57,447 bases of DNA from Pirellulales bacterium (lineage in GTDB: Bacteria; Planctomycetota; Planctomycetia; Pirellulales; UBA1268), in the NCBI GenBank assembly GCA_044336985.1, contig JBIIOK010000004.1, positions 1-57,447 of the forward strand, in the 5' to 3' direction. How positions within the stretch are numbered: position 1 is the stretch's first letter; each line of letters starts with the position of its first letter. Positions 903 to 15,948 of this stretch are shown here, one piece after another. Under the pieces are notes generated by a model. The model saw nothing but the letters and a program-made list of their open reading frames with translations. It was not told the origin of the DNA and searched no databases. The translations under genes were made by a program, and so were the position numbers.

Positions 903-2717
903 TCAGTGCGCGGCGGCAGCCGCAGCCGCCGCGGCCGCGTTTGGCGGGTCGGTCTGCATCAGATGATCCTTCTCCACGCCCGGCACCGAATACTCGTAGG
1001 GGCCGCGGTAGACCACCGGCTGGAAGTCGAAGTTGCCGTGGCCCGGCGGGCTCGGCGCCGTCCACTCGAGCGTGTTGGCGTTCCACGGATTCCGGCCGGC
1101 GACCGGGCCGAAGAACATGCTCCAGAAGAAGTTGATCGCGAAGATGATCTGCGAGGCGACCATGCCGATGGCGCACCATGTCATGAAGGCGTTCATCGGC
1201 TGCAGGTGATGGAACGTCTCGTAGTGGTAGGCGTCGGCGAGGCGGCGGGGGAAGCCGACGGCGCCGAGGATGTGCATCGTGAAGAAGGTGCCGTTCATGA
1301 AGATGAAGGTGAGGAAGAAGTGGACCTTCCCCCAAAACTCGTTCATCGTGCGGCCGAACATCTTCGGGAACCAGTAATAGATGCCGGCCCAGACGCCCAT
1401 CGCCGTGCCTGCGAAGAGCACGTAGTGGAAGTGGGCGACGATGAAGTAGGTGTCGTGGATGAAGATGTCGACCGGCGTGGCTGCCATGAAGATGCCCGAG
1501 AGCCCGCCGATGATGAACATCGAGACGAAGGCGAGGGCGAAGAGCATCGACGTCGTGAACTGGATCTTGCCGCCCCAGACGGTGCCCAGCCAATTGAACG
1601 TCTTCACGGCGCTCGGCAGGGCGATCATCATCGTCGACACCATGAACGTGATGCCGAGGGCCGGGTTCATGCCCGAGATGAACATGTGGTGGCCCCAGAC
1701 GATGAAGCCGAGGCCGGCGATGCCGGCGATCGAGTAGACCATCGGGCGGTAGCCGAAGAGCGGCTTGCGGGCGAACGTGGTGAGGATGTCGCTCACCATG
1801 CCCATCGCCGGCAGGATCATGATGTAGACGGCCGGGTGGCTGTAGAACCAGAAGAGGTGCTGCCAGAGGAGCGGCTGGCCGCCGCCGGTGGCCTGCATCC
1901 AGTTGTTGACGACGTTGCCTTCCGGCGAGAAGAAGCCAGTGCCGAGCGTGCGGTCGAAGAGCTGCATGAAGCCCGCGGCCGTCAGCACCGGCAGCGCGAA
2001 GGCCTGGAGCACGGCGGTGATGAACATCGCCCAGATCGTCATCGGGAGGCGAAACATCGTCATGCCGGGGGCCCGCATGAGGATGATCGTCGTCATGTAG
2101 TTGACGCTGCCGAGCATGCTCGAGACGCCCACCATCGTGAGGCCGATGAGCCAGAGCGTCTGGCCCCAGCCACTGCCGGGGGATGACGCCACGTTGGTCG
2201 AGAGCGTGGGGTAGCTCGTCCAGCCGCTGGAGGCCGCCCCGCCCTCCACAAAGAAGCTGGCTCCGAACGCGATGAAGGCCGGCCACATGAACCAGTAGGA
2301 GAGCATGTTAAGCGTCGGAAACGCCATGTCGTCGGCGCCGATCATGAGCGGGATCAGGAAGTTACCGAAGGCGCCCGCGAGGATCGGGATGATCACGAGG
2401 AAGATCATCACGGTGGCATGCATCGTGAAGAGCATCGTGTAGAACTCGGGCGCCATCTGGCCGCCCTCCTGGGCGAAGAGCTTGCCGAGCACCGGCACGT
2501 CGGACCACGGCCAGGCGATCTGCCAGCGGACGGCCAGCGCCAGGAGCCCGCCGATCAGGAACCAGACGAGCGTCGAGAAGAGGAACTGCAGGCCGATGAC
2601 CTTGTGGTCCTTCGAGAAGACATAGGTCGAGAGAAACTCGGCGACGGGCCGCGGCTTCCGCGCGGGCGGAAGGTGAGCGGTGCCGTGAGCCACAGGGGAT
2701 GCGGTGGCGGTGCTCAT
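903..2717 (-). CDS. ctaD: Cytochrome c oxidase subunit I, type A2
   Basis: FWFYSHPAVY, VWGHHM, VAHFHY; D-channel DMAFP, K-channel SAVK. Confidence 0.97.
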   Translation of the reverse strand: MSTATASPVAHGTAHLPPARKPRPVAEFLSTYVFSKDHKVIGLQFLFSTLVWFLIGGLLALAVRWQIAWPWSDVPVLGKLFAQEGGQMAPEFYTMLFTMHATVMIFLVIIPILAGAFGNFLIPLMIGADDMAFPTLNMLSYWFMWPAFIAFGASFFVEGGAASSGWTSYPTLSTNVASSPGSGWGQTLWLIGLTMVGVSSMLGSVNYMTTIILMRAPGMTMFRLPMTIWAMFITAVLQAFALPVLTAAGFMQLFDRTLGTGFFSPEGNVVNNWMQATGGGQPLLWQHLFWFYSHPAVYIMILPAMGMVSDILTTFARKPLFGYRPMVYSIAGIAGLGFIVWGHHMFISGMNPALGITFMVSTMMIALPSAVKTFNWLGTVWGGKIQFTTSMLFALAFVSMFIIGGLSGIFMAATPVDIFIHDTYFIVAHFHYVLFAGTAMGVWAGIYYWFPKMFGRTMNEFWGKVHFFLTFIFMNGTFFTMHILGAVGFPRRLADAYHYETFHHLQPMNAFMTWCAIGMVASQIIFAINFFWSMFFGPVAGRNPWNANTLEWTAPSPPGHGNFDFQPVVYRGPYEYSVPGVEKDHLMQTDPPNAAAAAAAAAAH

Positions 2718-2759: not shown

Positions 2760-3560
2760 TCAGTTTTGGGCGACCGCTTCGGCCGGATCGGGCTCCGGTT
2801 GCGTCGCCTCTTGTCGTGCGTATTGGGTCTCGAGCCAGCGGTCGAAATCCTCGCGGGATTCCACGGTCACGCGGCCCTTCATCTTGTAGTGGCCCCAGCC
2901 GCAGAGTTCGGCACAGACGATGTCGAACTGCCCGTTTTCTGTGGCCTTGAACCACACCGGGATCTTCATGCCCGGCACGGCGTCCTGCTTGATCCGCAGG
3001 TTGGGGATGAAGAAGCTGTGGAGCACATCCATGCTCTTGAGCTGGACGAGGATGTCCTCGTCGGCCGGCACGTGCATGTCGTTGACCAGAAAGAGGTCGT
3101 CTGCCGTGCCCAGCGTGCCGTCGCGGCCCGGGTAGCGGAGCCGCCACTCGAACTGCCGGGCCACGACCTCGACCGTGGGCGCCATGGCCGGCCGCCGCAT
3201 CTTCACGTCGGCCCAGGTGTTCATCTGGTAGATCGCCAGAAAGAGCAGCGTGGCCGCCGGGATGATCGTCCAAACCACCTCGAGCGTGTGGCTGCCGTGG
3301 ATGTATTTCGCCGGACCGTTGTTCTTGGCGGCGTCGTACTTCCAAAGGAACCAGAAAAGCATCACCTCCGTGGCGATGAAGACCACTCCCGTCAGCCCCA
3401 GGATGAAGTAAAAGAGGCCGTCGATCGCCTTGCCGTGCTCCGAGACGTCCTTTGGCAGCCAGACGTCGATGGCCGGCGCGATGGCGAAGGTCGCCACGCC
3501 GAGCACCGGAACGGCGAGAAACAACAGGCTCCAGAAGATTCCTGAGAAGCGGCTGCCCAC
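2760..3560 (-). CDS. ctaC: Cytochrome c oxidase subunit II (no fused cytochrome c)
   Basis: LEVVWTIIP helix; CuA motifs DVLHSF and CAELCGWGHYKM. Confidence 0.95.
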   Translation of the reverse strand: MGSRFSGIFWSLLFLAVPVLGVATFAIAPAIDVWLPKDVSEHGKAIDGLFYFILGLTGVVFIATEVMLFWFLWKYDAAKNNGPAKYIHGSHTLEVVWTIIPAATLLFLAIYQMNTWADVKMRRPAMAPTVEVVARQFEWRLRYPGRDGTLGTADDLFLVNDMHVPADEDILVQLKSMDVLHSFFIPNLRIKQDAVPGMKIPVWFKATENGQFDIVCAELCGWGHYKMKGRVTVESREDFDRWLETQYARQEATQPEPDPAEAVAQN

Positions 3561-3599: not shown

Positions 3600-4850
3600 T
3601 CAGAATCGGTCGCGGGCGACCATCGGGCGGTCGGCCCCGAGCTCGCCGTCGAGCTCGTAGGGAAGCGAACGGACGTAGTTGACGATGTGCCAGATGTCTT
3701 CGGGCGAAATCGTGCCCTTCGCCGCGGGCATCGGTGCGCCGTTGATGCCGGCATGGATGCGGTAGTAGAGGTCGAGCGGGCGGCGGCCGCCGCGGTAGAT
3801 GCCCTGCCGCAGGTTGCGGGGCGGGATCGTCCGCGGCGCGAGCGCGTCGCCGTCCAGGACGGCGTGGAACTTGTCGAGCCAGGCGAGCTGGGCCCGGTAT
3901 TCGGCGGCCTCGTCGGGGCTCATGCCCGCCGTGCTTGTTTCCTTCGCCTTGGAAGAGGTGCTCTTCACCTCCTTGTCGATCTCGACGATCGCCTTGTTCC
4001 AGTCGTCGTAGTCGTTGGCCTGGCCGTCACCGAGGCCGGTGACGCCGTGGCACTTCACACAGTTGGCCTTGTCGCCGTAGAAGAGCTCCTTGCCCTTGGC
4101 GATCGAGGCGACGAGGTCGATGTCGGCCGGCATCTCAGGCACGGCGATCCGCGCGTCGGCGGCCGCCTTCCACTTTTCGGCGACGGGCGCGAGCGTCTCG
4201 TCAACGAGAAATTCACGGGTCTCGGGGAGATTGCCCTGGGCATCGTCATCGAGTTCGAAGAATGCCCGCATGAGCGCGAGCTCCGTCTCGCCGCGGATGC
4301 TCAGGTACTTCACGTATTCCGCAAGGGCTTCCACCTGGGCCTCGGGCAGGAGCGCGAACGACGGCATCGACGTGCCTGCGATGCCTTTGTGGAGAATGCG
4401 GACGAGATCGGCGTGGGTCGGCTTGTCGGCCCGCTCCGTGCTCTTGAACTTGAAGACACCGGGGCGGTAATCGCGCGGGTAGGGGTTCAGGAAGGCGGCC
4501 GTCGGCCCGAGCCCATCGCCGGTGATGCCGTGGCAGTGGGCGCAGTGCTCGCGATAGAGGCCGTTCTTGCGGCCGACGATGTCGCTGCGGACGGGGCCGG
4601 CTGCCAGCCGCAGTTTCGCCTCATCGAGGCCCGTTTCGGGCAGGGCGACCGGATCGTCGGGCGTGCCGAACATCGCCAGGAGCACCGTGGCGACCTGCTT
4701 CTCCTGCGCCGGCGTCAGCCGCTGCTTCGTGGCCTCCACCATGTTGGGGCGAAAGGATGCAGCGGGCGTCGTGCCGCAGCCGACGGCAACGACGAGGCAG
4801 CCGAGCGAACAGGCGATCCAAAGCGGGCGGAGGGAGTATGCCATGGTCAT
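3600..4850 (-). CDS. Diheme cytochrome c, probable lipoprotein
   Basis: CAHCH and CVKCH, each followed by a distal MP motif; lipobox-like VAVGC; start moved to ATG 4850 (4844 also possible). Confidence 0.88.
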   Translation of the reverse strand: MTMAYSLRPLWIACSLGCLVVAVGCGTTPAASFRPNMVEATKQRLTPAQEKQVATVLLAMFGTPDDPVALPETGLDEAKLRLAAGPVRSDIVGRKNGLYREHCAHCHGITGDGLGPTAAFLNPYPRDYRPGVFKFKSTERADKPTHADLVRILHKGIAGTSMPSFALLPEAQVEALAEYVKYLSIRGETELALMRAFFELDDDAQGNLPETREFLVDETLAPVAEKWKAAADARIAVPEMPADIDLVASIAKGKELFYGDKANCVKCHGVTGLGDGQANDYDDWNKAIVEIDKEVKSTSSKAKETSTAGMSPDEAAEYRAQLAWLDKFHAVLDGDALAPRTIPPRNLRQGIYRGGRRPLDLYYRIHAGINGAPMPAAKGTISPEDIWHIVNYVRSLPYELDGELGADRPMVARDRF

Positions 4851-4864
4851 GCGCGGGGTTGTTA

Positions 4865-5758
4865 TCAGGTGCCGATGGCGGATGCCGGAACCTCGAGGGT
4901 TCCGAGATCCTTGACTTCGTCTTGTTCGAGCTTGATCTGAAAGCGGCCCTTGGGCGTCCACTTGAGGTCGGGTTTGTCGAGCCCGACGGCGCCGTTGGGA
5001 CCCGTGGACCGTTCGTGCCAGACCTGCAGTTCGATCGTCTCGCCGGCCGGCAGATCGGGGATCGAGAAGGAGCCGTCAGCCGCCGTCACGGCCACGTAGC
5101 CGTCCTTGCGAAAAACAGCGTAGGCCTTCATCCATGGATGGATGTTGCAGGTGACCATCGTCGGCATGCCGGTCTCGCTCTCCGGCTTGTAGATGGTCCC
5201 CTGCCCCGCCGGGACGAGCTGATTGAACGCCGTTCCCGCGATGTTGGTGTTGTGGCCGATCGGGTCGCTATTCCTGACATCGATCGGCTGCCCGACGCGG
5301 GCGGCAAACACGGGGGCGAGAAACTCGCACTGCTTCTGGTCGAAGACCAGCGGCGTTTCCGGAACGGGGTTTTTCACGCGGCTCGCCTTCCGGGCGAAGA
5401 CGACGACGTTTGCCAGGCCCTTCGTCGATGGGTCGACGAGCAGCGACCGGTCGAGCAGCTTCATGCCGGCCTTGGAGCAGACCTCGGTATCTTTGTCGGC
5501 GACGAGCGGCTTGGGGGCGCCGGGATCACCCGCGAAGACGAATCGCCCCTTGAGCGTGCCCCAGCCGGTACCGGTGGAGGCGGCGGCCTCGCCGGTCGCA
5601 GCTGCACCGCCAGTGCTCGCGAGCGTGACTCGCAATTGCTTCGCGGCCTCGGCGTCAGCCGTGGGGGCTGCGACGCGATCGGCCGTGCACCCGGAGGCGA
5701 CGGTGATCGCTGCCGCGAGACAGACGACGGAAAAACTACTTGTTGAACAGGCTTGCAT
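4865..5758 (-). CDS. Exported cupredoxin-like / carboxypeptidase-regulatory-like domain protein, probable lipoprotein (paralogue 2)
   Basis: Lipobox-like VASGC; WGTLKGRF; GHNTN...CNIHPWM; ADGSFSI. Confidence 0.75.
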   Translation of the reverse strand: MQACSTSSFSVVCLAAAITVASGCTADRVAAPTADAEAAKQLRVTLASTGGAAATGEAAASTGTGWGTLKGRFVFAGDPGAPKPLVADKDTEVCSKAGMKLLDRSLLVDPSTKGLANVVVFARKASRVKNPVPETPLVFDQKQCEFLAPVFAARVGQPIDVRNSDPIGHNTNIAGTAFNQLVPAGQGTIYKPESETGMPTMVTCNIHPWMKAYAVFRKDGYVAVTAADGSFSIPDLPAGETIELQVWHERSTGPNGAVGLDKPDLKWTPKGRFQIKLEQDEVKDLGTLEVPASAIGT

Positions 5759-6518
5759 CGAGAACCATCTCTCCCAGATCGTTGTCGCCGGCGGCGACCT
5801 TCACCTTCTTGCGTCCCTTGGCGATCTTCTCGGCCTTGCCGCCGACCGTGACCTCGCCGATGTAGCCGGCCTTTTCGTGCCAGAGTTGCAGTTCGAGCTC
5901 GCCGCCGGCCGGAACATTCTTGATCTCGAACGAGCCGTCGGCCTTGGAGACGGCCGCATATGGATTGGGCCGCACGACGAGCCACGACTTCATCCACGGG
6001 TGGATGTTGCAGGTCACCTGCGCGGGGATCGCCTCGTCGTTCGAGAACGTGATCGTCGTCTCGCCGCCGGCGGGGATCAGGCTGTTGGAAGGCGGGTTCT
6101 TGATCGTGGCGACGTTGCTGTTGTGACCGACGGTGTCGGAATTCTTGAGCACGAGCGTCTGTCCGGTCTGCACGAACGCGACGTGCGGGTTGAACCGGCA
6201 GTCCTTGTTGTCGAGGAGGATCTTCTCGCTCTTCGTGGCAGCGAGGTCGGGGTGAACCTTGACGGCCTTGTCGCGGACGAAGACGACGACGTTGGCCACG
6301 CCCTTGTCGGCGCCGACGACCATCTCCTCGCTGAGCAGTTTGTGCTTGCCACACACCTCGACGTCCTTATCGGCCTTCAGTTCGGAGGCCGTGGGCGCGG
6401 CGCCGCCGAACGTGAAGCGGCCCTTGAGCGTGCCCCACTCTTCCGCCGAAGCGGCGAAAGGACAGGCGGCGAACGCGACGGCAGCCATCGTGGCGACAGC
6501 GGGCAGGCGGAAGATCAT
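5736..6518 (-). CDS. Exported cupredoxin-like / carboxypeptidase-regulatory-like domain protein (paralogue 1)
   Basis: ATG 6518 with GGAG RBS; signal peptide ending ASA; WGTLKGRF; GHNSN...CNIHPWM. Confidence 0.78.
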   Translation of the reverse strand: MIFRLPAVATMAAVAFAACPFAASAEEWGTLKGRFTFGGAAPTASELKADKDVEVCGKHKLLSEEMVVGADKGVANVVVFVRDKAVKVHPDLAATKSEKILLDNKDCRFNPHVAFVQTGQTLVLKNSDTVGHNSNVATIKNPPSNSLIPAGGETTITFSNDEAIPAQVTCNIHPWMKSWLVVRPNPYAAVSKADGSFEIKNVPAGGELELQLWHEKAGYIGEVTVGGKAEKIAKGRKKVKVAAGDNDLGEMVLDASLFNK

Positions 6519-6568: not shown

Positions 6569-9500
6569 TCAGTTTAGCGCGACGCCCGGCTGGCGGGAGA
6601 CGTTCTGGCGGGGGGCTGGCGGTTGGGACGCATTTGGCGGGGACTCTTGGCCGGCAGGGACGGCCGCCGACGGCCGAGCGGTGGCCGGGGCCGCCGGAGT
6701 CTGCCGGAGATAGGCCTCGAGCGAGAGGCTGCGCTTGGCGAACAGGTCGTAGTGCATGAGCAGGTCGGTGAGCGCGTCGAGCTGCTGCTCGCTCGTGCCC
6801 CGGTAGAGGTCCTGGCTCACCGGCTTGTCGAACGGAATGTTCACGGGCATGCCCGTGTAGGGCAGGAACCGCTTCGGATTGGCGATCCAGTCGTGGACAT
6901 ACCCTGGCCGCAGCCGTTCGTGCACCCGCTCGAGCTGCGGGGCAAGCGCCTTGGGATTGCCCGGCGGGGCATAACTCCCCACGAGGTGGCACTTCACGCA
7001 GTAATTGTTGTTGGTGACGATCTTCATCGCGCCATCGAGATGGCCCGGTGCAGACTGCTCCTTCGCCATGACCGAAGACTCGTCGAGCCGCGGATCGTAG
7101 ACATACGGATATTCGGACCCGTCCACCGCGGCGAAGTAGTTGACGAGCGCCGCCGCCTCCGACGACTGGAAGTTGAACTTCGGCATCCTCATCACGGCGG
7201 GCGGCCGGATCGGATGCGGGTTGAGCAGGAACTTGTGCAGCCAGCCCGACTGCACCTTGCGTCCCTCACCGACGAGCGGCGGAGGCAGCCAGCCCCAGGC
7301 GTCATCCGGCTTCACGTTCGGATTCACCTGCTTCTCGTCGGCAATGACCACCGGGAAAAGCTGGCGGGCGAGGTCGCCACCGCGGGCCGGGTAATGCTTG
7401 CCGGCGTGGATCGCATTCTCCGGCACCATGATGTTTTGTCCGCCCACGATGCGGGCCTCGCCGTCCACGAGCGCGTCGTGCCAGAGCATCACCTGCCGGT
7501 GGGGAACGACTTCGGTGTCGCCTTCTTCGACCGGAACGCCATCCTCATCGACGAGCTGCGGCTTGCCGGTGACAGGGTCGAGTACCGGCATGCCGACGAG
7601 CGTCGTATGGCGGCGGCCCTGGCGGTCGGTGACGAGCGATTTCTCGGCCTGTTGCGGCGTGAAGTGAGGCGACAGGAATGGGTAGTCGGCCACGGCCTGG
7701 GCCGGACCGAGCGATTCGGGCTGGTAGCGGAGATCCCAGCGATCCATCTGCAGAGTATGGCAGCCGCCGCAGTTGTAGCGTTCGGCCACGACGAGCCCGT
7801 TCAGACGGGCCTCCTCGCGGGGCGACGGCTTGTAGATGAACTGTGGAGCCGGTGGCTCGGCCACCAGGCCGAGCACGAACGTCATCACCGCCTCGCGCTG
7901 TTCCGCGTTGAACGGGAACTGCGGCATGCGATACCGCTCGTTGTAGCTCTTGTTCTCCGCCTTCTTGTAGTCGTAACTCCGCGGCTGGCGCAGCTTCTGC
8001 CAGAGGAAGCCCTCGCGCTCGTGGGCGAGGAGCTTTTCGAGGAAGAAGCCCGTGTCGGGATCGACCGATTCCGGCGTCACATGCTTGGCGGCGGGCGCAG
8101 CGTAGGCGAGTTCCGGGGCCAGCGGCTCGTCGGCCGGCGACTTCCCGTCGGCGGCGTGCGGGGCCTCGGAGGCATGCCCGTGATGGCCGGCGGAACCGTG
8201 GTGCCCGCCCGCACCGTGGCCGTGCTCGAGCTGGTGCATCACGAAGTGGGCGGCCTGCTCGAAGGCGATCTTTGAGGGCTCCTTGCGGCCCCAGTCGGCG
8301 AGCGCCGCCCCTGCCGCCTTTCCATCCTCGAAGCCCGGGATGTCGTGGCAGGAGTAGCAGGCGAGCTTGGCGATCGTCTTCTTGCCGATGTAGTTGAGCA
8401 GCGTGGCATCGCGTTGCGGTCCGGCCAGGCCGGCGAGCATCCGCTCGTCGCCCTGGATCGTGGCCTGCTCCGGTCCGAGCCCGTTCTTCAGAACCTGCTC
8501 GGCCTTGGCGGCCGTGAAGCGATCCTTCAGATACATGAGCGCGAGCTCTTCCGTCGCCTTCCGTTCCTCGGCGGTGAGCGAGTTGGCCGCCGGCACGTCG
8601 GCCGGCTTCCAGTTTTCCGTCGAGCCCATGAGGTAGGCCGTGGCGTCGGCGGCGGGATCGCTCACCTTGCCGTCGGCGAGTGTCACCGGCTCGAGCAGGA
8701 CGTTCGGCATGATCGTCTTGGGGTGGTAGCGCGCCGGCTCACGCAGCCAGCTGTAGAGCCAGGCCGGACCGTTGGGATGCGATGCCGTCTTGGCGCCGAT
8801 CCGCGAGAGATTCGGGCCGTGGGTGCTCTTCGACTCGGGGAAGTCGGCGTGCTGGTGGCAGGCAAGGCAGCCGCGGACCTGGAACACCTTTCGGCCGCGC
8901 TCCACGTCCGGAGCCGCGGTGATCCCCTCGTAGGGCTTCACATACTCGAACGGCGCGCTCGCCGCGAGCATGTAGTTGATCATCGAGCGGATCTCGATCG
9001 GCTCATAGCGCTTCGACTCCTCGAGCCCCTTGCCTTCGAGGTGCTCCCAGAGCCCGAAGAACCGCGGCATCTTCGTCGAGGGGCGGAAGTCCTGCGGATT
9101 GCGGAGCCAGGAATAGAGCCAGTCGAAGCCGACCTTGCTCGCCACGTGCCGCAGGCTCGGGCCGACCTTGGGCAGCGTGCCGGGCGTCTCCGGATCCTTC
9201 AGGATCGCCGCCAATTCGTGGGAACGCTTCGAGAGCTTGGCATCGCCGCCGGCGGCCGCGTCGCGTTCGATCGCATCGCGCAGCCGCTCCCGCGAAGCGG
9301 AGCCATCGGGGCTGGAGCGGACGTCCTCCACCCAGCGGGCCACGGTGTCGCCCATGGACGCAAGGCCCGGATCGACCGCGAGGGCCTCGGCCACCTCGTG
9401 GAAGTTGGGCGCCAGACGCATGTCGGGGCCGATTCGCTTCTCGGGGCCGGACCAGCCGTTGATTTCGTGGCAGCCATAGCAGCCATACTGCCGGATCACA

Positions 9501-11092
9501 TGGTAGCCCTCGACGAGCTTCGGCGCCGGCGGCTCGGGGAATTTTTCGCTCGGCTCGAGATCGACCACCTGGTGGTGGCACTTCAGGCAGCTCGACTCCT
9601 CGAACCGCTGCGGCAGCATCGGAAAGATCCAGTGGTGGTTGTTGAACCAGCCATGCTCGTCGTGCCACTCGTGCGCCTGCTTGGGCGTGTTGGGCGTGTG
9701 CGACGACCACTTGAAGCTGGTGGCGCTCCCCTGCCCCTGGTGGCAGACGGTGCAGCCAAAGGTCTGCATCGGGTGCGGGCTCGTCGAGCCGACGAAGAGG
9801 TCGAGCCGCGGATGCGTCGAGTAGGGCTGCGGCACGCCCCGCTGCACGACGAGGTCGAGCGGTTTGCCCCAGGCGGGGGTCTCGAGCAGCGATGCCATCG
9901 CCACCCGGCGGGCCAGCGTCTTGCCGCCGCCGATGTCGGCGATCACGTCGCCCGGCATCAGGCCGGCCGCGGCGGCCGGCGACTCCGGCAGCACCATGCT
10001 CACGGTCGGGGCTTCTTGACGGAAAAGGCCGCGGGGGGCGAGGCGAAATCCGTAGGCAGCCTCCAGCTGGTCGTTTTCGTCACCTTCGGACTTCGGCGCC
10101 GCTGCCGGCGTCGGCAGGGAGACGGCCACCGCCTTTTGATCGTCGTAGGCCGGCTCCGTTGGCGAGCCCGGGAGCGACTTGTCCATTCCCTTGTGGCAGG
10201 TGGTGCAGCGATCGAACCGGGCAACGTCGCGGAAGTTGTTGTTGAGCGTCAGCTGCGGGAGCCAGATCTGGTCGACCCGCAGCGGGCCGTTGAAGGCGTC
10301 GAGCACCGGCAGCTCGAGCACGGTCTTGCCGACGTTCGGAGACCGGTCCTTGAGCGTCTTGGAAAGCGCAAGCAGCTTTTGGCGGTGGTCGGCAAGCGAC
10401 TTCGCGGCAACGTCCTCGCCGGCGGTGAGCTGCCGCAGCAGCCCCTCGAGCGTCTTGCGGTGCGTGTTGGCGGTCTGGTTCTCGAGCGTCGCGGACGCCA
10501 CCTCGGCCCGCTTCGCGTCGGCGACGGCGAGCAGCGCAGCCAGTTTCTCCTCGGAGGCATTGTCGGCGACGGCGAGCTCGTAGTCGGCGCGGTTCTTGTC
10601 GAGCTCGGCCTTGCGGAGCTTGAGCTCGCCGGCCCGCAGGTCCTCGCGAAACTTCGCCCGCTTCGCGATGTCGCGGAGCCGCTCGAGCAGATCGCCCCGT
10701 AGGGCCAGCCGTTCGGCGGGATCGGTCTGATTGCGCAGCGTGTCGACGTCGAGCTGGGCGCGGTCGGCCGCCTCGGCATCGGCCGGCACCGTGCGAACCT
10801 GATCGAGGAAGGTCTTCACGAGGGCCGGATCGAGATCGGCGCGGCGGGCCTCGGCAAGGACCGCGTCGAGTTCCTGCGTCTTCTCGGCGAAACCCCGTGA
10901 ATCCTGCTCATCGACCCGCGCGGCGGCCGACCACGTCTCGAGCGACCGGAACTCCCGCTGGTATTTCTTCCACGGCCGGTTGTGGTCGACGGCCAGCATC
11001 ACGACCGTGGCGAGCAGGAGCAGCAGTGCCGCCACGCCGAAGACGACGTGCAAGATCTTAAGATTACGCCAAGTCTGTTCTGTTGCGGGCAT
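6569..11092 (-). CDS. Membrane-anchored multiheme cytochrome c (8 CxxCH) with PDZ-like segment
   Basis: CTTCH, CTVCH, CLKCH, CYGCH, CLACH, CYSCH, CGGCH, CVKCH; N-terminal TM helix and coiled-coil-like region; VLPESPAAAAGLMPGDVI. Confidence 0.9.
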   Translation of the reverse strand: MPATEQTWRNLKILHVVFGVAALLLLLATVVMLAVDHNRPWKKYQREFRSLETWSAAARVDEQDSRGFAEKTQELDAVLAEARRADLDPALVKTFLDQVRTVPADAEAADRAQLDVDTLRNQTDPAERLALRGDLLERLRDIAKRAKFREDLRAGELKLRKAELDKNRADYELAVADNASEEKLAALLAVADAKRAEVASATLENQTANTHRKTLEGLLRQLTAGEDVAAKSLADHRQKLLALSKTLKDRSPNVGKTVLELPVLDAFNGPLRVDQIWLPQLTLNNNFRDVARFDRCTTCHKGMDKSLPGSPTEPAYDDQKAVAVSLPTPAAAPKSEGDENDQLEAAYGFRLAPRGLFRQEAPTVSMVLPESPAAAAGLMPGDVIADIGGGKTLARRVAMASLLETPAWGKPLDLVVQRGVPQPYSTHPRLDLFVGSTSPHPMQTFGCTVCHQGQGSATSFKWSSHTPNTPKQAHEWHDEHGWFNNHHWIFPMLPQRFEESSCLKCHHQVVDLEPSEKFPEPPAPKLVEGYHVIRQYGCYGCHEINGWSGPEKRIGPDMRLAPNFHEVAEALAVDPGLASMGDTVARWVEDVRSSPDGSASRERLRDAIERDAAAGGDAKLSKRSHELAAILKDPETPGTLPKVGPSLRHVASKVGFDWLYSWLRNPQDFRPSTKMPRFFGLWEHLEGKGLEESKRYEPIEIRSMINYMLAASAPFEYVKPYEGITAAPDVERGRKVFQVRGCLACHQHADFPESKSTHGPNLSRIGAKTASHPNGPAWLYSWLREPARYHPKTIMPNVLLEPVTLADGKVSDPAADATAYLMGSTENWKPADVPAANSLTAEERKATEELALMYLKDRFTAAKAEQVLKNGLGPEQATIQGDERMLAGLAGPQRDATLLNYIGKKTIAKLACYSCHDIPGFEDGKAAGAALADWGRKEPSKIAFEQAAHFVMHQLEHGHGAGGHHGSAGHHGHASEAPHAADGKSPADEPLAPELAYAAPAAKHVTPESVDPDTGFFLEKLLAHEREGFLWQKLRQPRSYDYKKAENKSYNERYRMPQFPFNAEQREAVMTFVLGLVAEPPAPQFIYKPSPREEARLNGLVVAERYNCGGCHTLQMDRWDLRYQPESLGPAQAVADYPFLSPHFTPQQAEKSLVTDRQGRRHTTLVGMPVLDPVTGKPQLVDEDGVPVEEGDTEVVPHRQVMLWHDALVDGEARIVGGQNIMVPENAIHAGKHYPARGGDLARQLFPVVIADEKQVNPNVKPDDAWGWLPPPLVGEGRKVQSGWLHKFLLNPHPIRPPAVMRMPKFNFQSSEAAALVNYFAAVDGSEYPYVYDPRLDESSVMAKEQSAPGHLDGAMKIVTNNNYCVKCHLVGSYAPPGNPKALAPQLERVHERLRPGYVHDWIANPKRFLPYTGMPVNIPFDKPVSQDLYRGTSEQQLDALTDLLMHYDLFAKRSLSLEAYLRQTPAAPATARPSAAVPAGQESPPNASQPPAPRQNVSRQPGVALN

Positions 11093-11095
11093 GGG

Positions 11096-12421
11096 TCAGA
11101 AGTTCAGCGAGAATTCGGGGATGCTCACGATGTATTTCAGGTTCAGCGTCCAGCGCAGGATCATCTTGAGCGGAAGCGAGAGCATGAGCAGCATCAGGTT
11201 CGCCATGATCATGTAGCGGATGAAGCCCATCTTCTGGTAGAAGCCGCGGAAGACGGTCACGGCGAGCAGGGGCGGCAGCAGCAGCAGGTAGGCCCCGAGC
11301 ACCACCAGCCCGGGCGCCTCGCGAAGGAGGATGGTGCCGATCTGCGTCAGTGTGCCGGCGCCCTGCGGGGCCCGCGGCAGCGGCCGATCGAGCAGGTTCA
11401 CCCAGAACATCTGCGGCAGGTCGACGTTGTTGAGCACCTCGACCTTGTAGGGCGTCCAATATTCGAACGGCCCGTAGAAATTCCAGTTGGGGCCGCGGAG
11501 GAACGTGCCGAGGATGATCAGCGTGATCCAGAGTTCGAAGAACCCGAACTGGTAGACGAGATAGCTGAACTTCCGCTCCTCGATCGAGTAGTAGCCGTTG
11601 CCCTTCTTGTTGAAGTCGAGATAGGGCATCGCCATCAGGCCGAAGACCACGAGGCTCGGCAGCACGACGCCCGCATACCAGGGATCGAAGTAGACAAGCA
11701 TCTCCTGGAGGCCGAGGAAGTACCACGGAGCCTTCGAGGGGTTGGGCGTCTTCACGCTGGAGGCCGGCTCCTCGAGCGGGGCCGGGAGGAAGATCGCCCA
11801 GACGAGCAGGAAGGCCGACACGGCCACCATGCAGATGAGCTCCGTGTAGACGAGGTCGGGCCACACGAGCACCTTCTCGTCGTCGAGTTTCTCCATCGGC
11901 GGCAGTCCCTGGGCGATCCGTTCGTCGTTGACGACGGCCTGCTTGGTGGCCACCCAAGTGAAGAACGCCAAGAGGAACACGAGCCCCACGATCGGCACGT
12001 TGTCGGGCTTCATGACGATCGCCGCGAAATTCTCGTCTGCCATCGAGAGGCCCATCAGCACGAGCGCCGCGTTGAACACCGACCAAGCCGCCATCGGCTT
12101 CACGAAGAACTTGCGAAACACGAACAGGATCGTGAACAACGCGGTGGTGCCCAGCGTGTAGAGCACCGGCCCCGAGAGCTTGTTGACGAGATTGCGGACG
12201 CTCAGCGGCAACCCGGGCACGAGGGACTCCGAGCCGGAGAGCGCCAGGCTCGCGAGGATCATCATGGCGCCGGAGAACACGGCCCAGGTGATGGCCCAGC
12301 CCGGTTTGCCGTGCTTCCGCCAAAGGAGCAGCGCGGCGATCGCGTTCATGATCGCCAGGCAGGTGTAATACGAGCCGAGGAAGCCGGAGACGTCCTTGAG
12401 GAACAGGCCGTTGGAATGCAT
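11096..12421 (-). CDS. Rieske/cytochrome b complex subunit IV-like protein with extra TM helices
   Basis: VWPDLV..E and PLEEPA....TPNPSKAPWYF (PEWY-equivalent); directly after cytochrome b6-like gene. Confidence 0.82.
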   Translation of the reverse strand: MHSNGLFLKDVSGFLGSYYTCLAIMNAIAALLLWRKHGKPGWAITWAVFSGAMMILASLALSGSESLVPGLPLSVRNLVNKLSGPVLYTLGTTALFTILFVFRKFFVKPMAAWSVFNAALVLMGLSMADENFAAIVMKPDNVPIVGLVFLLAFFTWVATKQAVVNDERIAQGLPPMEKLDDEKVLVWPDLVYTELICMVAVSAFLLVWAIFLPAPLEEPASSVKTPNPSKAPWYFLGLQEMLVYFDPWYAGVVLPSLVVFGLMAMPYLDFNKKGNGYYSIEERKFSYLVYQFGFFELWITLIILGTFLRGPNWNFYGPFEYWTPYKVEVLNNVDLPQMFWVNLLDRPLPRAPQGAGTLTQIGTILLREAPGLVVLGAYLLLLPPLLAVTVFRGFYQKMGFIRYMIMANLMLLMLSLPLKMILRWTLNLKYIVSIPEFSLNF

Positions 12422-12430
12422 GGGGTGGGT

Positions 12431-13204
12431 TTACAGCGGGCCGCTGATGCCGCCGTCCTTTCGCACGCGCCAGAAGTGGATGGCCAGCAGGAGCGCGACG
12501 GCCAGGGGGATCGCGATGCAGTGGAGCACGTAGAAGCGATTGAGCGTCTCCTCGCCCACGAACCGGGCGCCGAGCAGGCCGAACCGCGCGTCGGAGGCGT
12601 CGGTGATCATGTCGATGCCGCCGATGGTGAGGAGCTGCTGGCCCGGGCCCTCGTAGCCGAGGATCGGCGTGGCACGGGCCATGTTCGAGCCGACCGTGAT
12701 GGCCCAGATCGCCAGCTGATCCCACGGGAGAAGGTAGCCGGTGAACGAGAGCAGCAGCGTGAGCAAAAGCAGGATCACGCCGATCACCCAGTTGAACTCC
12801 CGCGGCGGCTTATAGCTGCCGGTGAGGAACACGCGATACATGTGCAGCCAGGTGGTGATCACCATCGCGTGGGCGCCCCAGCGATGAAGCTCCCGCAGGA
12901 TGCCGAGGCTCGTCACGTCGCGCAGGGCGAGGATGTCGTTGTAGGCCCACTCGAGCGTCGGCCGGTAATAAAACATCAAGAGCACGCCCGTGACCGTCTC
13001 CACCAGGAACAGGAAGAAGGTCACGCCACCCATGCACCAGGTGAAAGACAGGGCGATGCCCTGCTTCTTGATCGACACCGGGTGGAGGTGGAGGAAGAAA
13101 TTGGTGAGCATCACCACGATCCGGTTGCGCCGGTCGAGCGGCATCGGATGGCGGAAGATGCTCTTCCAGATCTGTGAGTTACGGATGGTTTCGCCGATGG
13201 CCAT
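12431..13204 (-). CDS. petB: Cytochrome b6-like (short four-helix cytochrome b)
   Basis: WCMGG; LHRWGAH...WLHMYRVF; TGYLLPWDQ; VLH...IHF; C-terminal GISGPL. Confidence 0.93.
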
Positions 13205-13242: not shown

Positions 13243-14334
13243 TCAGACCGTGATGAACGATTCGGGGTCGGCCCACTGGCCGAGCTCTTCCTGGAAGGCG
13301 CGGCTCTTGTCGACCTCCAGCTGGCCGTCGTCGGAGACGCGGATCGCGTAGCGCTCGAGCGGACGAGGAGCCGGCCCCTCGAAGTTGACGCCGTCCTTGT
13401 AGAACCCACTGCCGTGGCAGGGGCACTTGAACTTCTGCTCGGCCTCGAGCCAGTTGGGGGTGCAGCCGAGATGGGTGCAGACGGTCTTCAGGGCGTAGAT
13501 CTGCTGCTGCCCCTGGACCTCGCTGTTGACGACCCAGACGCCGTACTGAGCAACGTACTTCGTCTCGACCTTGCCGGTCGGGAAACCCTCCTTGAACCCC
13601 ACCTTGAAACGGCTCGGGGGCTCGGCAAGGACGTTGGGGAACATGTAGCGGGCGAGGCCCAGCGTGAAGAGGCCGCCGGTGACGGAGAGCGCCGTGAATC
13701 CCATCGCCATGAACGAACCGAGGGCCATCTCGAGGAATCCGCGGCGGTCTTCCTCCCCTTCGGCCGCCTTCTTGGCGACCGGCTTCGCCGGTTTTGGCGG
13801 CACTGCCTTGATCGCCGGCGCTGCCTTGATCGCTGGCGCTGCCTTGATCGCCGGCGCCGCCTTGGCGGCATGCTCCACGGCTGGCTTGGGCCGCGGCTCC
13901 GGCCGCGCCGGCGCCTCGGCCTTGCTGACGGGGCCGGGCTTCGCACCCGCTCGGGCGGCCGCAAGGATGCTGGCCGTGTCGCGGGCAACGGCCGCCTTCG
14001 GGGCCGCGGCTTTGGCAGCGGCCGGCTTGGCGGCGGCGGGCTTCGCGGCCGGTTTCTCGGCCGCCGGTTTCGCCGCCGGCTTTTCGGCGGGGGCAGCGTC
14101 GCCCTTGGCCCGCGCGAGTTTCATGATATCGGCGACGCTCGGGCGACCGCCGGCGGCTGGCTTGGCGGCCGCCGGTTTCGCCGCGGCCTTTGTGGCTTGG
14201 GGCTCTGAAGCTGCCGGCTTATCGGCCGCTGGTTCGGCGGAGACCTCTGCAGTTTCGGGGCCGGAACCGCCACCCTTCTGCGCACGAGCGGCCGCGAGAA
14301 TTTCCGCGACCGACATTTTCTTGTTGTCTGCCAT
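13243..14334 (-). CDS. petC: Rieske 2Fe-2S subunit with long Ala/Lys/Pro-rich N-terminal extension
   Basis: CTHLGC, CPCHGS, GPAPRPL; internal Tat-like DRRGFL plus TM helix; start moved to ATG 14334 because the upstream ORF portion is largely antisense to purD. Confidence 0.92.
   Translation of the reverse strand: MADNKKMSVAEILAAARAQKGGGSGPETAEVSAEPAADKPAASEPQATKAAAKPAAAKPAAGGRPSVADIMKLARAKGDAAPAEKPAAKPAAEKPAAKPAAAKPAAAKAAAPKAAVARDTASILAAARAGAKPGPVSKAEAPARPEPRPKPAVEHAAKAAPAIKAAPAIKAAPAIKAVPPKPAKPVAKKAAEGEEDRRGFLEMALGSFMAMGFTALSVTGGLFTLGLARYMFPNVLAEPPSRFKVGFKEGFPTGKVETKYVAQYGVWVVNSEVQGQQQIYALKTVCTHLGCTPNWLEAEQKFKCPCHGSGFYKDGVNFEGPAPRPLERYAIRVSDDGQLEVDKSRAFQEELGQWADPESFITV
13803..13856. repeat. 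3 x 18-bp in-frame tandem repeat (AAPAIK)
   Basis: ctgccttgatcgc(c/t)ggcg three times. Confidence 0.9.
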
Positions 14335-14444
14335 CGGTTTGCCTCGCGCGATTACCAGCAGAAGGCCGTGTTCTGCGAGTCGTCGGCCTGCCCTGCCGGG
14401 AGCAAAATCAGTCCAAAACCATCGTTTTCGGACGCTTTTCCAGG

Positions 14445-14466
14445 GTTCGTGATTTTTTTCACGAAC
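14445..14466. promoter_or_regulatory. Palindromic operator, Rex/CRP-like spacing
   Basis: gttcgtga-tttttt-tcacgaac in the divergent Rieske/purD intergenic region. Confidence 0.55.
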
Positions 14467-14625
14467 TCTATTTAACTGTATCGACCGCGGCAGAGGTGTC
14501 AACGTCAGCGTACCCCGGAACCCCCCGCAACACCGTCCCTCCTTGCCCAGGCGGCAGTGATACCGCCACAATCCGCGGCCGTCGCCAGTCGCCAGCCCAG
14601 CCCCTCCTTGTGGAAGGATCCGCCC

Positions 14626-15948
14626 GTGCCCGCATCCCGCCGTGTTTTGGTCGTAGGCGGCGGCGGCCGCGAACATGCCCTCGCCTGGAAGCTCGCCCGC
14701 GACGGCGCGGAGGTGCTCGTGGCTCCTGGGAACGCGGGAACGGCGGCGATCGCCGAGAACGTCGCGGTGGCCGCGACGGATATTCCCGGCCTCGTGAAGC
14801 TCGCCCGGGAACGCGGTGTCGATCTCACCGTCGTCGGCCCGGAGGCGCCGCTCGTCGCCGGCATCGTCGATGCCTTCACGGCCGCGGGCCTGCGGGTCTT
14901 CGGTCCCACCGCCAAGGCGGCACAGCTCGAGGGCAGCAAGATCTTCTGCAAGCAGATCCTGCACCGCGGCGACGTGCCGACTGCAATGTTTCAGCAGTTT
15001 CGTTCCGTAGCGGCCGCGCGGGAGTTTCTCGAGGCGCGCGAGGATATGCCGGTGGTGGTGAAGGCCGACGGACTGGCGGCCGGCAAGGGAGTCTTCGTCT
15101 GCGGCGACCGCGCCGCGGCGCTCGAGGCAGTCGCCACGCTCGGCGGCGACCCGCAATTCTCGGCGGCGGCGAAGGGCATCCTGATCGAGGAGAAGCTCGA
15201 CGGCATGGAGGTGAGCGTGATGGCGATCAGCGACGGCCGCACGATCGTGACGCTGCCGCCCCTGCAGGATCACAAGGCGGCCTACGACGGCGACCAAGGG
15301 CCCAACACGGGCGGCATGGGGGCCTACTGTCCGACGCCCTTCGTCGATGCCGAACTGCTCGCCGACATCGAGGCCCGGATTCTGGTTCCCACGGTCCACT
15401 CGCTCCGCCGGTCGAAGGTTCCCTTTCAGGGCGTGCTTTACGCGGGACTCATGCTGACCGCGCAGGGCCCGAAGGTGCTCGAATTCAACGCGCGTTTCGG
15501 AGATCCGGAATGCGAGGCCTTGCTCGTGCGGCTCGACTCGAGCCTGCTCGACCTGCTCGACGCGGCCGCCGACCGGCGTCTCGAGACGGTCGAGCCCCCG
15601 GTCTGGCGTGACGGCGCGGGCGTGACGGTCGTGATGGCTTCGGAGGGCTATCCCGGCCCGGTGGAAAAGGGGCGGCCGATCCGCGGCCTGGAAGCTGCGG
15701 GCAAGATCGAGGGCGTGCAGGTGTTTCATGCGGCGACGAAGCTCGTCGACGGCGCCGTTGTCAGCGACGGCGGCCGGACGCTCGCCGTCACGGCCGTGGC
15801 GGAGTCGCTGGCCAAGGCGAAACTGCAGGCCTACACGGCCGTTCGGGAGATCCGCTGGCAGGGCGCCTGGTGCCGCAAGGATATCTCCGACAAGGCGATG
15901 GCCTACGAGCTCGCGGCGCCCGAGGCCGGGCCGGGGGCCGCCTCATGA
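14626..15948 (+). CDS. purD: Phosphoribosylamine-glycine ligase
   Basis: VLVVGGGGREHALAW, KADGLAAGKGV, QDHK, GPNTGGMGAY, EFNARFGDPE; GTG start after GAAGGA. Confidence 0.97.
   Translation: MPASRRVLVVGGGGREHALAWKLARDGAEVLVAPGNAGTAAIAENVAVAATDIPGLVKLARERGVDLTVVGPEAPLVAGIVDAFTAAGLRVFGPTAKAAQLEGSKIFCKQILHRGDVPTAMFQQFRSVAAAREFLEAREDMPVVVKADGLAAGKGVFVCGDRAAALEAVATLGGDPQFSAAAKGILIEEKLDGMEVSVMAISDGRTIVTLPPLQDHKAAYDGDQGPNTGGMGAYCPTPFVDAELLADIEARILVPTVHSLRRSKVPFQGVLYAGLMLTAQGPKVLEFNARFGDPECEALLVRLDSSLLDLLDAAADRRLETVEPPVWRDGAGVTVVMASEGYPGPVEKGRPIRGLEAAGKIEGVQVFHAATKLVDGAVVSDGGRTLAVTAVAESLAKAKLQAYTAVREIRWQGAWCRKDISDKAMAYELAAPEAGPGAAS

Follow-up and report, generated by a model that had tools for sequence, protein, structure and literature searches.

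Cytochrome c1 can be replaced by multi-domain class I cytochromes, as in QcrC of the actinobacterial bcc-aa3 system, which wires complex III directly to the aa3 oxidase, and in the diheme cytochrome c of epsilon-proteobacteria. In two Rieske/cytochrome b complexes of Kuenenia stuttgartiensis, a hexa- or octaheme cytochrome c replaces cytochrome f, and in AlphaFold3 models the long helices of the large multiheme subunit Kustd1485 wrap around the complex (PMC12954380, in the sections consulted). Kao and Hunte defined an APWY clade in which cytochrome b is split, its b6 part has WCMGG, and the Qo motif reads APWY (PMC4122944, in the sections consulted). Here, we describe a locus in a 57,447-nucleotide (nt) stretch of DNA from a Pirellulales bacterium (GenBank assembly GCA_044336985.1, contig JBIIOK010000004.1, positions 1 to 57,447), the whole of which is called the window. 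A single gene in this window (6569..11092, minus strand) encodes an octaheme cytochrome c of 1507 amino acids (aa). This protein probably replaces cytochrome c1 or f as an eight-heme wire that feeds an aa3-type oxidase, a reading supported by sequence, fold, and synteny. An earlier note on the same DNA, made from the sequence, had proposed a long periplasmic wire; an eight-heme periplasmic electron carrier encoded where c1 or f would be is supported by the present analysis.

Eight hemes and the gene cluster around them

The open reading frame (ORF) that the earlier note had read as a 1507-aa octaheme cytochrome at 6569..11092 is correctly placed and lies on the minus strand. Its start is the ATG at 11092, which is backed by the resulting N terminus, MPATEQTW, the homologue consensus in a 51-sequence alignment. 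A gap of 3 nt separates this start from the stop of the subunit IV-like gene upstream. The protein has exactly eight CxxCH motifs, as had been counted in the note, at aa 296, 447, 502, 538, 742, 912, 1108, and 1365, and all 16 of its Cys residues sit in them. This number is far above chance, given that 2000 shuffles of the protein had a mean of 0.0065 CxxCH and a maximum of 1. On these motifs, the protein is a predicted multiheme c-type cytochrome with covalently attached hemes. The motifs are retained in homologues: all eight occur in 121/121 close sequences and in 95/97 of the listed representatives of at least 1250 aa, with one of the remaining two having 7 and the other 6. The features of the octaheme protein are as follows.

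6569..11092, minus strand: octaheme cytochrome c gene (P0001), 1507 aa, ATG at 11092, stop at 6569-6571
10988..11056, minus strand: N-terminal signal-anchor helix (aa 13-35), the sole strong hydrophobic segment (aa 16-34, Kyte-Doolittle 2.87)
10307..10972, minus strand: helix-prone region (aa 41-262), from composition
10193..10207, minus strand: heme 1 motif CTTCH (aa 296-300), invariant in the 51 aligned sequences
9830..10147, minus strand: PDZ domain (aa 316-421) between hemes 1 and 2, from AlphaFold (predicted local distance difference test [pLDDT] 92-97), Foldseek, and VIA-align
9467..9814, minus strand: compact multiheme core (aa 427-542; His427, His440, His465, and the CxxCH of hemes 2-4), from fixed spacings and invariant His
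6845..9481, minus strand: five class I-like His/Met modules (CxxCH at 538, 742, 912, 1108, and 1365), paired in order with Met-Pro at 675, 795, 1056, 1303, and 1415
8090..8236, minus strand: His/Gly-rich disordered loop (aa 953-1001) between the heme 6 CxxCH and its Met, pLDDT ~35 for aa 959-1001
7391..7756, minus strand: beta-rich inserted domain (aa 1113-1234) past the heme 7 CxxCH, from DSSP strands in a confident model
6713..7276, minus strand: last heme module (heme 8, aa 1273-1460), from VIA-align
6572..6700, minus strand: Pro/Ala-rich disordered C-terminal tail (aa 1465-1507), pLDDT <50

The distal ligands of the hemes could be assigned from two 51-sequence alignments, each with 12 close sequences, 31 representatives bearing the PDZ domain, and 7 representatives without it. 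Exactly three non-motif His residues (His427, His440, and His465) and exactly five Met-Pro pairs (M675, M795, M1056, M1303, and M1415) are invariant in these alignments. The three His and five Met would supply all eight distal ligands, with hemes 1-3 predicted to be bis-His and hemes 4-8 His/Met. Every heme would have a conserved sixth ligand and no open coordination site is predicted; the protein therefore appears to be wire-like rather than enzyme-like.

The compact core that holds the three invariant His has nearly fixed dimensions among homologues. The spacing between hemes 2 and 3 is 54-59 residues (55 in nearly all), and that between hemes 3 and 4 is mostly 34-36, with five of 96 rows at 44-86. 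Pfam gives weak Cytochrome_C7 and Paired_CXXCH matches in this region. Past the core, the earlier note had described repeated class I-like modules with GPxL and MP motifs. Five modules, each ending in Met-Pro, are indeed found by alignment, but an exact GPxL occurs in only two of them (at aa 644 and 759). Three of the five are split by inserts, namely, a helical insert, the His loop, and the beta domain. The octaheme modules are of the class I cytochrome c type according to the PF00034 match at aa 730-807 (E 2.5e-13; 51.6 bits versus a cutoff of 21.3), the His/Met pairing, and the fold.

A model of aa 560-1507 has a mean pLDDT of 84.7 and a predicted template modeling score of 0.79, with disorder predicted at aa 959-1001 and 1465-1507. 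Foldseek found no match to this 948-residue model at E ≤ 1e-3 and no solved structure like the whole of it. A wide VIA-align search gave matches to single modules only and barely probed the beta-rich and helical inserts; the class I fold matches include SoxX, c551, and mitochondrial cytochrome c. The best match of aa 714-826 is SoxX (Z 10.7, root mean square deviation [rmsd] 2.0 Å, 97 residues). No fold match was obtained for the beta-rich insert, for which the lists were filled by other domains. The last module, which is among the parts most often matched in distant genomes, aligns with c1 from seven complexes III (Z 7.0-8.4, against the aligner's stated background of 7-8) and with a Kuenenia diheme cytochrome (Z 8.4, near that background).

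The N terminus would hold the protein in the membrane. As the earlier note had claimed, there is one strong hydrophobic segment (aa 16-34), and the first 50 residues show 80-83% identity over 121 close sequences. Heme attachment happens on the periplasmic side, and for that reason everything past the anchor helix is expected to be periplasmic. A coiled-coil stalk had also been proposed. About 220 helix-prone residues do follow the anchor (aa 41-262; A/E/L/K/R/D/Q 73%, P+G 5%), but a heptad coiled coil was not shown: in a crude test, the mean best heptad a/d occupancy was 3.48/8 versus 3.20 ± 0.19 in shuffled sequences, and 45/500 shuffles reached the observed value. The N-terminal helix and parts of the helical region are strongly conserved, with blocks of 0.80-0.86 identity, and the 51-sequence consensus shows a motif at aa 143-175. 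At the other end of the protein, the C-terminal tail is the least conserved block (identity 0.27), and its final residues vary.

The genes around the octaheme gene follow one another on the same strand in the order Rieske, b6, subunit IV-like, octaheme, two cupredoxin-like, diheme c, cox2, and cox1. The order Rieske, b6, subunit IV, octaheme is that expected from the cytochrome c1 position assigned in the earlier note. The neighbors are as follows.

13243..14262, minus strand: Rieske protein, 339 aa from MADNKK at 14262 (PF00355 E 3.9e-11; box II CPCHGSGF; tail ending in DPESFITV)
12431..13204, minus strand: cytochrome b6-like subunit, 257 aa (PF00033 E 8.4e-40; WCMGG, with CMGG at aa 57)
11096..12421, minus strand: enlarged subunit IV-like protein, 441 aa, ~9 hydrophobic segments (PF00032 at aa 219-291; APWY within SKAPWYFLG)
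5736..6518, minus strand: cupredoxin-like protein 1 (GHN ... C-x2-H-x2-M; Cupredoxin_1 and Copper-bind below cutoff)
4865..5758, minus strand: cupredoxin-like protein 2, a paralogue (only Pfam match CarboxypepD_reg, E 0.16)
3600..4847, minus strand: diheme class I cytochrome c, probably a lipoprotein (PF00034 E 9.9e-21; two CxxCH)
2760-3560, minus strand: cytochrome c oxidase subunit II (PF00116/PF02790)
903-2717, minus strand: cytochrome c oxidase subunit I (PF00115 E 1.5e-146)

In all 78 close loci, the genes follow this nine-gene order for as much of it as the contig covers. The octaheme gene was counted in 78 of these loci, the subunit IV gene in 73, b6 in 65, Rieske in 62, and cup1 in 61; downstream, the counts are 61 for cup2, 55 for diheme c, 53 for cox2, and 47 for cox1. 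In other families of the same bacterial order, the arrangement was seen again in 20 loci, 19 of which have the Rieske, b6, and subunit IV genes upstream; the remaining one lacks such a match. All 20 distant loci sampled in the phylum have an ORF with eight CxxCH. Rieske, b6, and subunit IV genes immediately precede it in 16 of them, and cupredoxin, diheme c, and cox genes follow it in most. Pfam scans of the cluster proteins revealed no other candidate for a c1- or f-type gene, and the cluster has no sox gene, NAD(P) oxidoreductase gene, or donor-oxidizing enzyme. The only COX1 match in this 85%-complete genome is the cluster's own. By its motifs SKAPWYFLG and WCMGG, the cytochrome b of the window is assigned to the APWY clade.

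Several neighbors have features of their own. The Rieske gene ends an 828-codon open frame (13243-15729, minus strand), and its N terminus consists of ~190 residues rich in Ala/Pro/Lys (with repeats such as AKPAAAKPAA), followed by an RRGFLE Tat-like motif and a membrane helix. The subunit IV-like protein is far larger than a three-helix subunit IV, and its tail (PE.SLNF; elsewhere PE.F[LF]N[FIL]) is kept in most of the sampled phylum loci. Both cupredoxin-like proteins (4865-6518) are exported and have a C-terminal part with a faint CarboxypepD_reg match; related loci have 1-3 copies. Their C-x2-H-x2-M pattern presumably corresponds to a blue-copper site with an amicyanin-like loop. Past cox1 lies a gene for a probable heme A synthase, a name that comes from reading a translated fragment alone. 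The genome has another cytochrome b homologue on a different contig (C4, 18383-18922, plus strand); it sits within a 791-codon open frame and may be a fused form. In one locus (L093; G104 contig C19) the cluster is rearranged, with the octaheme and a cupredoxin ahead of Rieske, b6, and subunit IV. In another (L111; G517 contig C3) the octaheme is in two open frames of 1335 aa (six CxxCH) and 437 aa (two), a split due to a frameshift or an assembly error in a cluster that is otherwise intact.

The octaheme protein is nothing unusual within its family, which is large and conserved and has hardly been studied by experiment. Of 8000 proteins scored in a word-indexed search, 1291 reached E ≤ 0.001, and the best 120 of these are 71-94% identical and 1488-1603 aa long. 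When aa 270-1469 were searched exhaustively, 4535 representatives reached E ≤ 0.001, 1029 of them at E ≤ 1e-30. Records of the close loci are titled mostly Pirellulales, Planctomycetia, or Planctomycetaceae. Among nine loci with 74-82% identical copies (L008, L021, L043, L070, L079, L012, L024, L039, and L055), several are titled “Candidatus Kuenenia” and one “Chitinophaga,” labels that look unreliable. Compact homologues of 949-956 aa, encoded in genomes of the phylum, are 25-35% identical to the window's protein over the C-terminal part. One of these (L121; 956 aa, eight CxxCH) is encoded after Rieske, b6, Pyr_redox_2/4Fe-4S, and subunit IV genes, the third of which (4538-6238, plus strand, between b6 and subunit IV) encodes a 567-aa Pyr_redox_2/Fer4_20/4Fe-4S protein. 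At the locus of the other (L120; 949 aa, eight CxxCH), the window's Rieske, b6, and subunit IV proteins used as queries gave no match.

The PDZ domain and the His/Gly loop

The PDZ-like segment recognized in the earlier note is a true PDZ fold located between hemes 1 and 2, as judged from the AlphaFold model of aa 262-565, which was built on the 51-sequence alignment without heme and predicts the fold with high confidence (pLDDT 92-97). With the PDZ model as a query, Foldseek matched at least 98 solved chains at E ≤ 1e-3, and the best 50 are all PDZ domains. VIA-align placed 743/990 chains at Z ≥ 8, with the best match being Scribble PDZ1 (Z 12.2, rmsd 1.9 Å, 87/94 residues). Sequence profiles gave lower scores. 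The Pfam PDZ matches on the octaheme protein (E 6e-4) fall below the gathering scores of the models (PF00595, 20.5 bits versus 23.2; PF17820, 19.0 versus 27), and the NCBIfam PDZ matches are likewise below cutoff. Among the long inserts between hemes 1 and 2, 21/22 match Pfam PDZ models at E ≤ 0.01, several of them above cutoff.

The order of strands and helices in the model is that of a canonical PDZ domain, with an extra helix (aa 339-347) preceding Tyr347-Gly348-Phe349. These three residues, immediately before modeled strand B (aa 349-351), occupy what we take to be the place of the PDZ carboxylate-binding loop (hydrophobic-Gly-hydrophobic). The Tyr-Gly of this loop reaches the majority consensus in the 51-sequence alignment.

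Among the sampled loci, the eight-heme core is found phylum-wide and the PDZ insert only in the window's order. In that order, 129/151 sampled genomes match aa 262-470 at E ≤ 1e-10, and the spacing between hemes 1 and 2 is 146-176 in all 20 fetched loci. Among representatives, this spacing is bimodal (≤102 in 27/95 and ≥130 in 68/95). L087, which is among the 20 phylum loci, comes from the window's order and carries the PDZ domain. The other 19 comprise 18 with a spacing of 42-92 and one (L091) with a spacing of 162 and no PDZ match, so that the domain was found in 0/19 of the octaheme loci sampled outside the order.

The C termini of all cluster proteins were compared as potential PDZ ligands, and that of the Rieske protein alone has the character of a hydrophobic C-terminal ligand in the PDZ-carrying lineages. 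In the close family this tail reads S[F/Y][V/I]xV, with a final Val in 55/62, Ala in 6/62, and Ser in 1/62; across the order, the final residue is Val in 14/19, Ala in 2/19, and another residue in 3/19. The PDZ-less lineages keep the S[F/Y]V core of the Rieske protein and have an end that is variable in length and residue. This pattern suggests that the Rieske tail could be the PDZ ligand, a correlation that is confounded by phylogeny. A complex prediction for the PDZ domain with the Rieske soluble domain and tail scored 0.00 and 0.00 versus a mark of 0.32, which speaks neither way. The docking of a partner C terminus on the PDZ domain, as imagined in the earlier note, may occur.

The remaining tails were set aside as ligands. 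Among close relatives the diheme c protein ends in a conserved [R/K]DRF, which is not kept across the order, and the subunit IV tail is equally conserved in PDZ-less lineages. The b6 tail should be cytoplasmic, judging from the four helices of that protein. The cupredoxin tails are variable in length, and neither the octaheme's own tail nor that of cox2 is conserved.

A second insert, between the CxxCH of heme 6 and its Met, contains the His-rich linker of the earlier note, and the His tract HQLEHGHGAGGHHGSAGHHGH is present there from aa 953. All 121 of the close sequences have this loop, with 6-16 His within 52-101 residues and without a conserved sequence. At least 4 His within a 30-residue window were also found in 24/39 more distant loci. 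The loop is thus a compositional feature that is disordered and frequent but not universal. Binding of a metal (Cu or Ni), which the note had suggested, is plausible.

Proposed electron path and alternatives

We propose that the octaheme protein is the cytochrome c subunit of a b6f-like, menaquinol-oxidizing Rieske/cytochrome b complex, in place of c1 or f. This complex would have the split cytochrome b with WCMGG and the APWY Qo motif. The single N-terminal helix would anchor the octaheme in the cytoplasmic membrane, with the remainder in the periplasm, and the ~220 helix-prone residues more probably pack on the complex than stand free. Electrons would enter from the Rieske [2Fe-2S] cluster and pass along eight six-coordinate hemes, three of them bis-His in a compact N-terminal core and five of them His/Met in class I-like modules. 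They would leave to the CuA of the co-encoded aa3-type oxidase, either directly or via the cupredoxins and the diheme c. The PDZ domain may add a protein-protein contact, either with the [F/Y][V/I]xV C-terminal tail of the Rieske protein or in a PDZ-PDZ dimer, and the His/Gly loop may be a flexible accessory that possibly binds metal. The Rieske box II is of the GS.F type, which a figure legend in PMC3509893 ties to 200-230 mV; the Rieske cluster would therefore be compatible with His/Met acceptors.

Several points weigh against this proposal. What speaks for the octaheme protein as a putative stable subunit is its gene neighborhood alone. Pfam and NCBIfam scans of the protein at E ≤ 1 returned neither the cytochrome c1 nor the cytochrome f family, and the modeled resemblance of the last module to c1 is near the background of the aligner. 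The anchor is N terminal, unlike those of c1 and f. Furthermore, the compact core is modeled at low confidence and heme is absent from the model, so that heme-heme distances cannot be judged from it. Three bis-His hemes would normally have potentials too low for a simple downhill path from a Rieske cluster at ~+200 mV. Finally, APWY-type complexes may run in reverse (Kao and Hunte, PMC4122944).

The direction of electron flow is the matter of one alternative, in which the octaheme gathers electrons from periplasmic donors for the quinone pool or the oxidase and is not an outlet for quinol oxidation. Such reverse operation was proposed for the APWY clade in the same paper (in the sections consulted), and the window has both the APWY of subunit IV and the WCMGG of b6. 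The three putative bis-His hemes would suit a low-potential branch, and the second cytochrome b gene on contig C4 could serve the forward reaction. However, throughout the order and in most of the sampled phylum loci, the octaheme gene stays linked to two cupredoxins, a diheme c, and the oxidase, which is the sole heme-copper oxidase detected in the genome. This conserved linkage argues for the forward direction, and the cluster encodes no enzyme that would oxidize such a donor. We regard the reverse direction as improbable. The same low weight is given to the idea that the octaheme is a separately anchored shuttle, like cytochrome cy or c552, which is merely cotranscribed and moves electrons from the complex to the oxidase. 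The anchor at the N terminus and the long, flexible-looking helical region after it would fit a shuttle, and another c-type subunit would be unnecessary if one octaheme module docked transiently. Against this stand the lack of another c1- or f-type candidate in the cluster, the strong conservation of the N-terminal helix and of parts of the helical region (the blocks and the aa 143-175 motif described above), and the fixed place of multiheme-subunit transmembrane helices in the AlphaFold3 models of the Kuenenia complexes (PMC12954380, in the sections consulted). It is very unlikely that the protein is instead a multiheme enzyme that catalyzes a reaction of, for example, nitrogen oxides, peroxide, or metals. 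Its eight hemes recall octaheme enzymes, and there is a weak sequence match in the PDB to an eight-heme nitrite reductase (E 0.53), but the sixth ligand is conserved on all eight hemes, the Pfam and NCBIfam scans found no HAO, NrfA, or peroxidase family match, and the fold matches are to electron transfer cytochromes.

The role of the PDZ domain is a separate question from the electron path. The domain could be a structural or dimerization element rather than a receptor for a partner C terminus, a view to which we assign somewhat less than an even chance. Rieske/cytochrome b complexes are dimers, and the PDZ domain might join two octaheme copies over a dimeric b complex or pack on its own heme domains. 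In crystals, MamP dimerizes mainly through contacts between its PDZ domains, against each of which the first heme domain of the same chain is packed (PMC3971196, in the sections consulted); by analogy, a PDZ-PDZ dimer would be an equally good model for the octaheme. A weak NCBIfam MamE match at aa 364-444 (E 1.7e-4) points the same way, as do the facts that no tail except that of the Rieske protein suits a PDZ ligand across the order and that the Rieske S[F/Y]V is also present in PDZ-less lineages. In favor of a receptor are the Tyr-Gly-Phe loop directly ahead of strand B, with its majority Tyr-Gly, and the Rieske C terminus, which ends two residues past [F/Y][V/I] with a terminal Val in most close (55/62) and order (14/19) loci and becomes variable in length and residue where the PDZ domain is missing.

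A bolder extension of the proposed path is unlikely. The nine genes might encode one hard-wired quinol-to-oxygen supercomplex in which the PDZ domain clamps the [F/Y][V/I]xV tail of the Rieske protein, tethering or gating its moving head by the entry heme, and the disordered His/Gly loop stores or relays copper in the periplasm for CuA, CuB, and the blue-copper sites. If true, this would be the first respiratory cytochrome with a PDZ-peptide lock on the Rieske subunit.

Comparison with described systems

Aerobic, heterotrophic planctomycetes of the window's order abound in lakes, soils, and seas, and a 160-kDa eight-heme subunit seems to link their quinone pool to oxygen. The ligand assignments (three bis-His and five His/Met) together with the fixed nine-gene cluster make this system ready for cryo-electron microscopy and redox work. 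The PDZ domain in this respiratory cytochrome suggests that the complex is assembled, or its Rieske protein controlled, in a way foreign to the textbook bc1 and b6f enzymes. In the literature on planctomycete bc subunits and on PDZ multiheme cytochromes, with subscription papers and supplements outside the search, we found no description of a PDZ-bearing subunit; the related papers, in the portions consulted, cover only planctomycete split cytochrome b, anammox subunits, or MamP.

Automatic annotation is likely to mislead at this locus. The SoxX equivalog model TIGR04485 passes its cutoff on the octaheme protein (72.2 bits versus 61) by adding three stretches, including aa 742-801. An identity as SoxX was rejected, with the bc/oxidase cluster lacking any sox gene, and the match is an annotation trap and a likely source of wrong automatic names. 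Single modules do share GPxL...W..P...MP with SoxX and CcoO/FixO, and FixO matches aa 642-683. However, SoxX and CcoO are one-heme proteins with their own partners (SoxA and CcoN, respectively), whereas here the modules belong to one 1507-aa chain.

The magnetosome proteins MamP and MamE resemble the octaheme in that a PDZ domain is fused to c-type heme domains in one exported protein (PMC3971196, in the sections consulted). The hemes of the octaheme are instead class I-like or c7-like, and the context is respiration, not biomineralization. Pfam gave no Magnetochrome (MCR) match in the window's protein at E ≤ 1; 6/22 homologue segments have such matches, all below cutoff (16-21 bits versus 30.4).

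Like c1 in bc1 and f in b6f, the octaheme is a periplasmic, membrane-anchored c-type carrier encoded after Rieske and cytochrome b, but it has eight hemes versus one, an N-terminal rather than a C-terminal anchor, and no match to the family models. Foldseek matched QcrC chains at E 1.1-2.4, a similarity too weak to show kinship, and QcrC and the epsilon-proteobacterial diheme c have two hemes versus eight and lack a PDZ domain, a helical region, and a bis-His core.

The Kuenenia complexes are among the closest described counterparts, as they share with this locus a multiheme cytochrome c in the place of cytochrome f, a b6-type split complex, a single membrane helix, long helices, and the same phylum (PMC12954380, in the sections consulted). 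The gene layout at L121 is that described there for the Kuenenia complexes, and its homologue could be Kustd1485 itself. Compared with the compact homologues, the window's protein is ~550 residues longer and has the PDZ insert, the His-rich loop, and the beta-rich insert. The cluster in the window also differs in having no NAD(P) oxidoreductase gene and in being joined instead to cupredoxins and an aa3-type oxidase. The presence of the same core in anammox-type clusters ties this respiratory locus to the question of why those complexes carry so many hemes.

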